Position numbers: made by a program. Positions 18,001 through 19,161 of a stretch of 64,000 nt of DNA are shown here, in pieces (the first letter of the stretch is position 1; each line of letters begins with the position of its first letter). The DNA comes from Escherichia coli (GTDB lineage: Bacteria; Pseudomonadota; Gammaproteobacteria; Enterobacterales; Enterobacteriaceae): assembly GCF_051903065.1 (NCBI RefSeq), contig NZ_CP178438.1, one strand, 5' to 3'.

Positions 18001-19161
18001 TCATTTTATTTCTCTATGCATAATTATGGGTTTAAGTATAATAAAATGTATTTTGTATTTTAGACGTAAAATAGTAAGGTGCTATCAAAAATCGCTCATT
18101 TTGTGGATGGGAAATATTTCATGGCAGGTGAGATATTTAATACAACTTCCTTCATGCAGGATTATGCGCAGCCAATTATCCGCGCGTTATATTTAAAGAT
18201 CTTATTGCCTGGTTGACGCTTCTGCATCGTAATGCACCACGCACTGCCAGTCGCTGCCCTGCTGGCAATATATCGCTTCGGTCTGCCCAGGGATCACCCA
18301 TTGTATTTCCTCGCCGGGGGGACAGGTCAGCCAAATGCATAACCCGCAGCCGCCGCGTAAAACACGGGGAATATCGCTGACGCGAAAAGTCATGCCCGCT
18401 GCCTGCAATGCCTTGCGGGTTTGTATCACGCCGACCGTGGAGTGGAATAAAAATAAAAACTCTTTCATCGGCGTTTTCTCGCTCGTTGACCAATTACCGC
18501 CGCGCCAATTGCGCCAGCAAATTGCGCATCAGGATGGGTATTTACTGGCATTCCCAGATGAGATTCCAGCATCCGGGCAAACGTCTGGCAATGACTAACG
18601 CCACCAGTAAACAGAATCGGCGCTTCACAGGAGAGACGAGCAATGAAATTGGCACTCCGCCGCGCCATCGCGTTAATCACTCCGGCGAGAATCGCTTCTG
18701 GCGCGACGCCCGCTGAGCGCAGGCTGATCACTTCTGATTCGGCAAACACTGTGCACATACTCGTGATGGCGTGCGGCGTGACATTTTCGGTAATGCAGTC
18801 GAGTTGCTCGACGCTGGTGCCAAGCGTGCGCGAGATCACCTCCAGGAAACGCCCGGTGCCCGCCGCGCATTTGTCATTCATCAGGAAATCGCACAGGTTA
18901 CCGTCATCATCAAGCTGAATCACTTTGCTGTCCTGACCACCGATGTCGATTACCGCGCGCGTTGCTGGCGCAAGAAACCGTGCGCCCAGCCCGTGACAGG
19001 AGATTTCCGTCACTTGTTTATCGGCAAAATCTACCAGTTGCCGCCCGTAGCCGGTGAGCGTCAGAAACGGCGTTGTCTCTAACCCTTCGCGCAGAGTTTC
19101 CCAGGCTTCAGTAATTGCTGTTGCCGGGCGAAAGGGGGTTGGAACGAGGAAACGGTGCGTA

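Follow-up and report, generated by a model that had tools for sequence, protein, structure and literature searches.

The double-cubane-cluster-containing protein DCCP and its ATP-dependent reductase DCCP-R have been described by Dobbek's group as a two-component system with unknown physiological function (PMC7317905, PMC9351452). The same group assigns YjiM of Escherichia coli to "class II" DCCPs, which have an open channel and lack the N-terminal channel-closing helices. Among 970 double-cubane proteins of family NF040772, with YjiM named as a member, 955 are encoded in SelD-positive genomes (Haft, 10.1101/2022.07.06.499078); selenium in the cofactor is raised there as a formal possibility, and DUF3343 is not mentioned. 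The DUF3343 family, now Pfam PF11823 (Se_S_carrier), has been proposed to act as a selenium/sulfur trafficking chaperone, based on its conserved Cys and on clustering with YedF, selenocysteine (Sec) lyase, and SelD (Lin et al., 2015, PMC5322559), and duf3343 is one of the five genes that most often overlap selD (Kayrouz et al.). Here we analyze ytiA, a small gene directly behind yjiM and yjiL, in a stretch of 64,000 nucleotides of E. coli contig NZ_CP178438.1 (assembly GCF_051903065.1), hereinafter the window.

In the STRING table for Slackia (PMC5322559), DUF3343 is partnered, among others, with 2-hydroxyglutaryl-CoA dehydratase subunits and with a "CoA-substrate-specific enzyme activase"; judging by the neighboring locus tags (Shel_25420, activase; 25430 and 25460, DUF3343; 25470, dehydratase subunit), these genes are probably adjacent.

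Compared with the DCCP/DCCP-R pair of Carboxydothermus hydrogenoformans (PDB 6ENO, 7YYL), the locus of the window has the same two components. YjiM matches 6ENO (E = 3e-75, 39% identity) and carries the motifs LPRNLCPLIKS and VVGETTCDGKKK, of 11–12 residues, which are invariant between the two proteins, and YjiL is the matching ASKHA activase. However, the C. hydrogenoformans system is described as strictly two-component, while the Enterobacterales version has an extra, apparently coupled cistron, ytiA. With PF11823 proteins in general, YtiA shares a significant match to the hidden Markov model (HMM), the stand-alone size of 80–100 amino acids, the conserved Cys, and the predicted fold; it differs in genomic context, as the members known from the literature adjoin selD, yedF, or Sec lyase genes, whereas the YtiA subfamily is seen only behind yjiM–yjiL.

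Gene Call and Evidence for Selection

The list of open reading frames (ORFs) of the window contains a frame of 88 codons on the minus strand, with exactly the limits (18202–18468) and length given in a preliminary description of this DNA, which did not specify the strand. Its translation is MKEFLFLFHSTVGVIQTRKALQAAGMTFRVSDIPRVLRGGCGLCIWLTCPPGEEIQWVIPGQTEAIYCQQGSDWQCVVHYDAEASTRQ, and the peptide quoted in that description corresponds to residues 8–48. Several other ORFs of about 88 amino acids are found nearby, and the ORF size by itself is uninformative.

The gene is an ordinary one that both RefSeq and the K-12 reference genome already contain, so the earlier suggestion of an unannotated partner, with no annotated K-12 gene at this site, does not stand. 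In K-12 MG1655 (NC_000913.3), ytiA is b4715 (YP_009518833.1, 85 amino acids, "uncharacterized protein YtiA"), directly 3' of yjiL. A strain 100% identical to the window over 17900–18800 has the product as WP_047623641.1, "putative Se/S carrier protein". The region is matched in 5385 of 5426 complete E. coli genomes, RefSeq names ytiA in nearly all E. coli, and the labels from the Prokaryotic Genome Annotation Pipeline (PGAP) and RefSeq among the matches listed are "ytiA: DUF3343 domain-containing protein" or "putative Se/S carrier protein".

The Pfam search yields a match to PF11823 (E = 9e-13, 48 bits, residues 4–59 against positions 2–57 of the 69-position model), so the DUF3343-type product suggested earlier is upheld, and YtiA is almost certainly a member of this family. 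The same domain is precomputed on nearly all YtiA homologues; no NCBIfam model matches YtiA. The ratio of non-synonymous to synonymous substitution rates (dN/dS; Nei–Gojobori, codons 1–66) was calculated for the window, K-12, Klebsiella pneumoniae, Atlantibacter hermannii, and Citrobacter amalonaticus. In frame, it is 0.06–0.32 in seven of the ten pairs, dS being saturated in the other three; in the two same-strand off-frames it is about 1–2.8. Scanning GTDB with a single genome for each species gave 52 ytiA loci, and in 49 of them the frame is intact, with 78–89 amino acids; one of the others lies at a contig end, and two (L066 and L067) are frameshifted. Given the Pfam match, the dN/dS values, the intact frame, and the conserved start/stop overlap (see below), ytiA is far beyond a chance ORF, and there is hardly any doubt that it truly codes for a protein and is subject to purifying selection.

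The yjiM–yjiL–ytiA Unit

The plus strand of the window reads TCAT at 18465–18468, hence ATGA on the minus strand, with the ytiA ATG at 18468–18466 and the yjiL TGA at 18467–18465 (Table 1). The overlap noted in the preliminary description is therefore real, and it is kept across the species loci: 39 of 51 scorable yjiL–ytiA junctions have an NTGA overlap of 4 nucleotides, nine have an overlap of 1 nucleotide (TAATG or TGATG), and three are of other types, at least two of these being an 8-nucleotide overlap. On the strength of this conserved overlap, the proposed coupling of ytiA translation to yjiL is accepted as probable. The purine-rich stretch in the 3' end of yjiL may serve as a Shine–Dalgarno sequence; K-12 has TGAGGA at this position, and a Shine–Dalgarno-like core is found 5–20 nucleotides 5' of ytiA in 36 of the 49 intact loci.

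The two upstream products are assigned by strong family matches: YjiM, an oxygen-sensitive iron–sulfur reductase, to NF040772 (E = 2e-159, 531 bits versus a cutoff of 350), and YjiL, which supplies it with electrons at the expense of ATP, to TIGR00241 (acyl-CoA dehydratase activase, E = 3e-108). An in-frame GTG at 19238 is an alternative possible start of yjiL. The gene yjiL is directly upstream of ytiA in all 52 loci, and yjiM is present in 51, the contig being too short in the exception. Hence ytiA, which had been taken for a possible third member of a yjiM–yjiL operon, closes the unit as its third cistron, in Enterobacteriaceae and beyond.

The scan of 17800–20700 for promoters and terminators gives counts not exceeding the shuffle expectation, with no terminator 3' of ytiA. 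The search for FNR boxes (TTGATNNNNATCAA, at most two mismatches) yields 42 matches versus 38 expected, none in the yjiN–yjiM spacer, and gives no evidence on anaerobic control.

Table 1. Features of the ytiA locus in window coordinates; limits of yjiL and yjiM are those of the PGAP annotation of a strain 100% identical over 17900–18800, which also gives ytiA the limits shown
Feature	Coordinates	Strand	Description
ytiA coding sequence	18202..18468	minus	88 codons and TAA stop at 18202–18204; DUF3343/Se_S_carrier product
Divergent 3' end of ytiA	18202..18257	minus	About the last 18 codons; differs from K-12 and most E. coli
Pfam Se_S_carrier domain region	18292..18459	minus	Residues 4–59
Conserved loop DIPRVLRGGCGLC	18337..18375	minus	Codons 32–44; family-invariant P34, C41, G42; C41-x-x-C44 pair
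ATGA overlap	18465..18468	minus	ytiA start and yjiL stop share 4 nucleotides, from the sequence
Purine-rich stretch GAGCGAGAAAA	18474..18484	minus	Putative Shine–Dalgarno-like sequence in the 3' end of yjiL, 5–15 nucleotides 5' of the ytiA ATG
yjiL	18465..19232	minus	Upstream cistron; ATP-dependent activase/reductase, DCCP-R-like
yjiM	19242..20393	minus	First cistron; double-cubane-cluster-containing anaerobic reductase

Distribution and Limits of the Association

The 52 ytiA loci come from Escherichia, Citrobacter, Klebsiella, Raoultella, Kluyvera, Kosakonia, Phytobacter, Atlantibacter, Trabulsiella, Yokenella, Cedecea, Superficieibacter, Enterobacter spp., and Hafnia. Unrelated genes flank the trio in Klebsiella, Atlantibacter, and Citrobacter. 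The genes of distant homologues P0142 and P0143, with YtiA identity of 35–37%, are still 3' of genes for a 383-residue HGD-D protein and a 256–259-residue BcrAD_BadFG protein. For metagenome contigs, the scan used YjiM aligned with the crystallized C. hydrogenoformans DCCP. Wherever YjiM is at least 78% identical and the contig continues far enough downstream, yjiL is followed by ytiA (HMM E from 1e-22 to 1e-43), with the sole exception of L131, where the reading frame is disrupted. Taken together, YtiA is very likely a functional partner of YjiM and YjiL.

Ten other loci (about eight distinct; YjiM 61–68% identical, GC content 0.25–0.44) have yjiM–yjiL but, for E values of up to 50, no DUF3343 ORF in the surrounding 8 kb or so. 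Since these low-GC pairs have no such ORF, the YjiM–YjiL pair needs no adjacent YtiA. Hence, the earlier statement that DUF3343 proteins accompany such gene pairs is correct for the Enterobacterales-type loci and over-general otherwise; by its distribution, YtiA appears to be an accessory that Enterobacterales and related bacteria have gained, rather than an obligatory or universal subunit of such reductases.

YtiA evolves much faster than its partners. Across species, YjiM has a median identity to the window of 88%, YjiL of 83%, and YtiA of 64%; at one locus (L013), YjiM is 81% and YtiA 37% identical. YjiM is unusually conserved (L011, L013, L016–L067), with 86–89% identity between enterobacterial genera. 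The phmmer search with YtiA against 1.84 billion representatives gives only 41 matches at E ≤ 1e-3, and two distant relatives among them are on contigs too short for gene context. Protein searches of large databases with YjiM and with the divergent profile A3 returned, among the matches listed, close relatives only and no distant contexts. DUF3343 relatives of YtiA in the AlphaFold Database (AFDB), compared as proteins, are 46–48% identical in Aeromonas and 31–36% in Morganella and Leminorella.

Several variants of the locus may be mentioned. In Citrobacter amalonaticus AUH_CA_2023_1 (L066) and Enterobacter sp. EA-1 (L067), the frameshifted ytiA is accompanied by only a partial match to yjiM, truncated in the former and with 57.9% identity over a shorter stretch in the latter; this suggests that either the whole module is decaying or the assemblies contain errors. 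An IncC NDM plasmid of Providencia stuartii (NZ_OQ750828.1, NZ_CP142096.1, positions 79884–81636) carries a Klebsiella-derived segment with 5'-truncated yjiM, yjiL, and a DUF3343 gene; the paper on this plasmid names only an MFS (major facilitator superfamily) transporter, YjiL, and YjiM there. A DUF2164 gene for 79 amino acids is present between yjiN (DUF445) and yjiM in Klebsiella (L004, 2739–2978) and Citrobacter (L008, 2740–2979); the E. coli yjiN–yjiM spacer, of about 115 bp, has no DUF2164 gene.

Conserved Residues and Predicted Fold

Conservation was assessed in 50 sequences, namely 49 loci from Enterobacteriaceae and Hafnia and the window. The block D32-I-P-R-x-L-R-G-G-C41-G-L-C44 (the DIPRxLRGGCGLC loop) is nearly fixed in this set, with Cys41 conserved in 100% and Cys44 in 98% of sequences, and the residues invariant down to 28% identity (alignment A3) are Phe8, Pro34, Cys41, and Gly42. 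The invariant Cys41 agrees with the conserved Cys reported for DUF3343 (PMC5322559). Cys44 completes a CxxC pair in most members; in Hafnia, P0138, and P0142 it is replaced by Ser. The mean frequency of the most common residue is 0.83 at positions 1–47, 0.61 at 48–66, and 0.36 in the tail, 67–88.

The AlphaFold2 model of YtiA, built from an alignment of 21 sequences, has a predicted local distance difference test (pLDDT) score of 90 and a predicted template modeling (pTM) score of 0.81. The predicted elements are a strand (2–8), a helix (11–23), two strands (28–32 and 43–49), a helix (53–57), and two strands (63–70 and 73–79), that is, a ferredoxin-like beta-alpha-beta-beta-alpha-beta-beta fold. 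As the conserved motif falls between strands 28–32 and 43–49 of the model, it would form a loop before the third strand. Comparison with AFDB models of DUF3343 proteins from Proteobacteria, Fusobacteria, and Clostridia (15–30% identity) gives TM scores of 0.7–0.9, for predicted structures only; these relatives have 77–125 residues and no fused-domain annotation. The PDB search with the YtiA sequence gives only noise (E ≥ 0.04), with no solved structure related by sequence and none solved for a family member, and no TusA-type structure is among the listed matches of the model.

Proposed Role of YtiA

The overall best explanation, which we hold tentatively, is that ytiA is translationally coupled to yjiL and encodes a partner of YjiM acting through Cys41. 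Ribosomes ending yjiL would re-initiate at the overlapping ytiA ATG, and YtiA would therefore be made together with the YjiL/YjiM machinery. It would serve this machinery via the invariant Cys41 on an exposed Gly-rich loop: the residue could hold a sulfur or selenium species (persulfide or perselenide), or could act as a thiol/disulfide partner, and YtiA might give this species to the ATP-energized [8Fe-9S] double-cubane reductase YjiM or take it from the latter. The sulfur/selenium carrier or thiol mechanism is the likeliest role considered here, but is itself less probable than not; it is suggested by the selenium context of DUF3343, the correlation of SelD with NF040772, the conservation of Cys41, and the common unit with yjiM and yjiL. 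The idea of a carrier also draws on a functional analogy with the sulfur-relay proteins TusA, SirA, and YedF (PF01206), which likewise are small cytoplasmic proteins with one essential loop Cys; YedF, moreover, is tied by context to DUF3343 and selenium. YtiA itself does not belong to PF01206, having neither the HMM match, nor the CPxP Cys motif, nor, among the listed structural matches, the TusA fold.

Two separate signals might be linked by YtiA, namely the near restriction of YjiM-type reductases to SelD-positive genomes, and the clustering of DUF3343 with selD, yedF, and Sec lyase, although we consider this doubtful. If so, the operon could be an ATP-driven system of very low potential acting on a protein-bound chalcogen, again a doubtful assignment; in two equally conjectural variants, it would reduce a sulfur or selenium species bound to Cys41 of YtiA (e.g., to selenide for SelD), or load sulfur or selenium into the double-cubane cofactor.

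A number of observations weigh against a Cys41-based carrier or thiol partner. The name "Se/S carrier" of the family is itself a guess of comparative genomics from gene neighborhood, and no experimental work on any DUF3343 protein was found in the searchable literature; the same holds for reports on expression or function of E. coli ytiA (b4715), the matches to "ytiA" being a Bacillus L31 paralogue, a different gene. No selenium gene is among the annotated neighbors yjiK, yjiJ, yjiL, yjiM, yjiN, and mdtM in K-12 and in a window-type strain, nor beside ytiA at the Klebsiella, Atlantibacter, and Citrobacter loci. Neither sequence nor fold shows any likeness to TusA-type carriers. As Ser stands in place of Cys44 in the members named above, a CxxC redox couple is not general to the family. 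To these should be added the low-GC pairs devoid of a nearby DUF3343 ORF and the fast evolution of YtiA.

Among other explanations, the one that survives best is a small regulatory or structural subunit with a PII/ACT-like ferredoxin fold, binding YjiL or YjiM via the conserved loop, but it seems unlikely. The loop would be at the topological position of the PII T-loop. YtiA would control the hydrolysis of ATP or the transfer of electrons, and Cys41 would be a redox sensor instead of a carrier, a detail as unlikely as the subunit itself. The structural similarity, however, is generic to the ferredoxin-like fold, with no sequence signal; a variable tail and fast evolution would be unusual in a tight subunit of so conserved an enzyme; and other members of the family adjoin selD, yedF, or Sec lyase rather than ATPases.

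Somewhat less probable still is a maturation factor that would deliver the extra bridging sulfide (or selenide, following the speculation of Haft) by which the [8Fe-9S] cluster of YjiM is made from two [4Fe-4S] cubanes, or would repair the cluster. A single conserved loop Cys is typical of persulfide relay proteins, ytiA is tightly co-located with the gene of a cluster-bearing enzyme, and the NF040772–SelD correlation together with the formal possibility of selenium in the cofactor (10.1101/2022.07.06.499078) fits such a role. On the other hand, the DCCP/DCCP-R of C. hydrogenoformans has been studied as two components with no mention of a third protein (PMC7317905, PMC9351452), and the low-GC YjiM homologues have no DUF3343 nearby.

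Finally, that ytiA is a chance or decaying functionless frame, an annotation artefact carried along with yjiL, could be argued from the lack of published expression of E. coli ytiA in the searchable literature, the lack of an NCBIfam match, the weakly conserved tail, and the two frameshifted species representatives out of 52, but it has next to no probability, being effectively refuted by selection (dN/dS well below 1 in frame and at least 1 in the off-frames) and by conservation, including the residues invariant down to 28% identity, the significant Pfam match, the confident predicted fold common to the family, and synteny kept across genera with saturated synonymous sites.

The Window Allele and Neighboring Genes

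The ytiA allele of the window occupies the same site 3' of yjiL and has the same ATGA overlap as the K-12 gene (RefSeq WP_000657675.1). The proteins are identical at 71 of 80 aligned residues (89%), with one difference in residues 1–60. They differ in length (88 versus 85 residues) and in the tails, …GSDWQCVVHYDAEASTRQ in the window and …DGVWRCIAHYGVSPR in K-12; the variable tail is outside the Pfam domain. At the DNA level, the alignment with K-12 stays almost perfect up to about codon 60, then decays, and is lost past the stop codon. Most E. coli genomes match only from window position 18258 onward, and coverage of 80% or more of 17900–18800 is reached in only 635. We observe here a mosaic or recombination boundary inside the last 18 or so codons of ytiA (18202–18257), extending downstream to about 17890. 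When the window is compared with K-12, ytiA codons 1–66 have a dS of 0.20, a figure based on only eight synonymous differences, and yjiL has a dS of 0.064.

In the window, ytiA is followed by a pentapeptide-repeat gene for 758 amino acids (15613–17889, minus strand), located between yjiK and ytiA, absent from K-12, and coinciding with the ytiA breakpoint. This arrangement is strain-variable, being present in only about 635 of the 5385 E. coli genomes with a match. Tandem peptide repeats (TPATPA…, DKQ(A/V)NDST…) occur inside the product, whose similarity to HetL/Qnr pentapeptide proteins and to PipB and PipB2, type III effectors of Salmonella, is weak and falls below the cutoff. An ORF of an IS5-family transposase (NF033579, E = 6e-107; 14371–15339, plus strand) lies between yjiK and the pentapeptide-repeat gene. 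The element appears to have been inserted recently, because strain 23CRST027, 100% identical over 17900–18800, has only about 270 bp at this site; the insertion creates an extended TTG-started ORF over yjiK.

On the other side, 18465–22000 corresponds to yjiL–yjiM–yjiN–mdtM. The "yjiL-mdtM gene cluster" has been tied to uptake of proline-rich antimicrobial peptides in the absence of SbmA (Krizsan et al., 2015, as cited in PMC8801401); as far as they are described there, studies of this cluster leave ytiA out of account.

Implications

The gene call itself changes nothing; its value is as a pointer to a third component of the double-cubane system. A tractable system of this kind, that of E. coli, has an overlooked, strictly conserved, and apparently coupled third protein with one invariant Cys, from a family that genomic context associates with the trafficking of selenium and sulfur, while the role of double-cubane reductases is unknown (PMC7317905, PMC9351452). 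The papers on YjiM and YjiL, like those on the yjiL–mdtM cluster so far as they are cited, are silent on ytiA, and experiments with deletion or expression of yjiL or yjiM should take it into account. The chemistry of Cys41 may offer a cheap route to the substrate of this enzyme class, and, if the doubtful link with SelD were true, YtiA would provide the first physiological substrate or partner for the orphan DCCP of E. coli.

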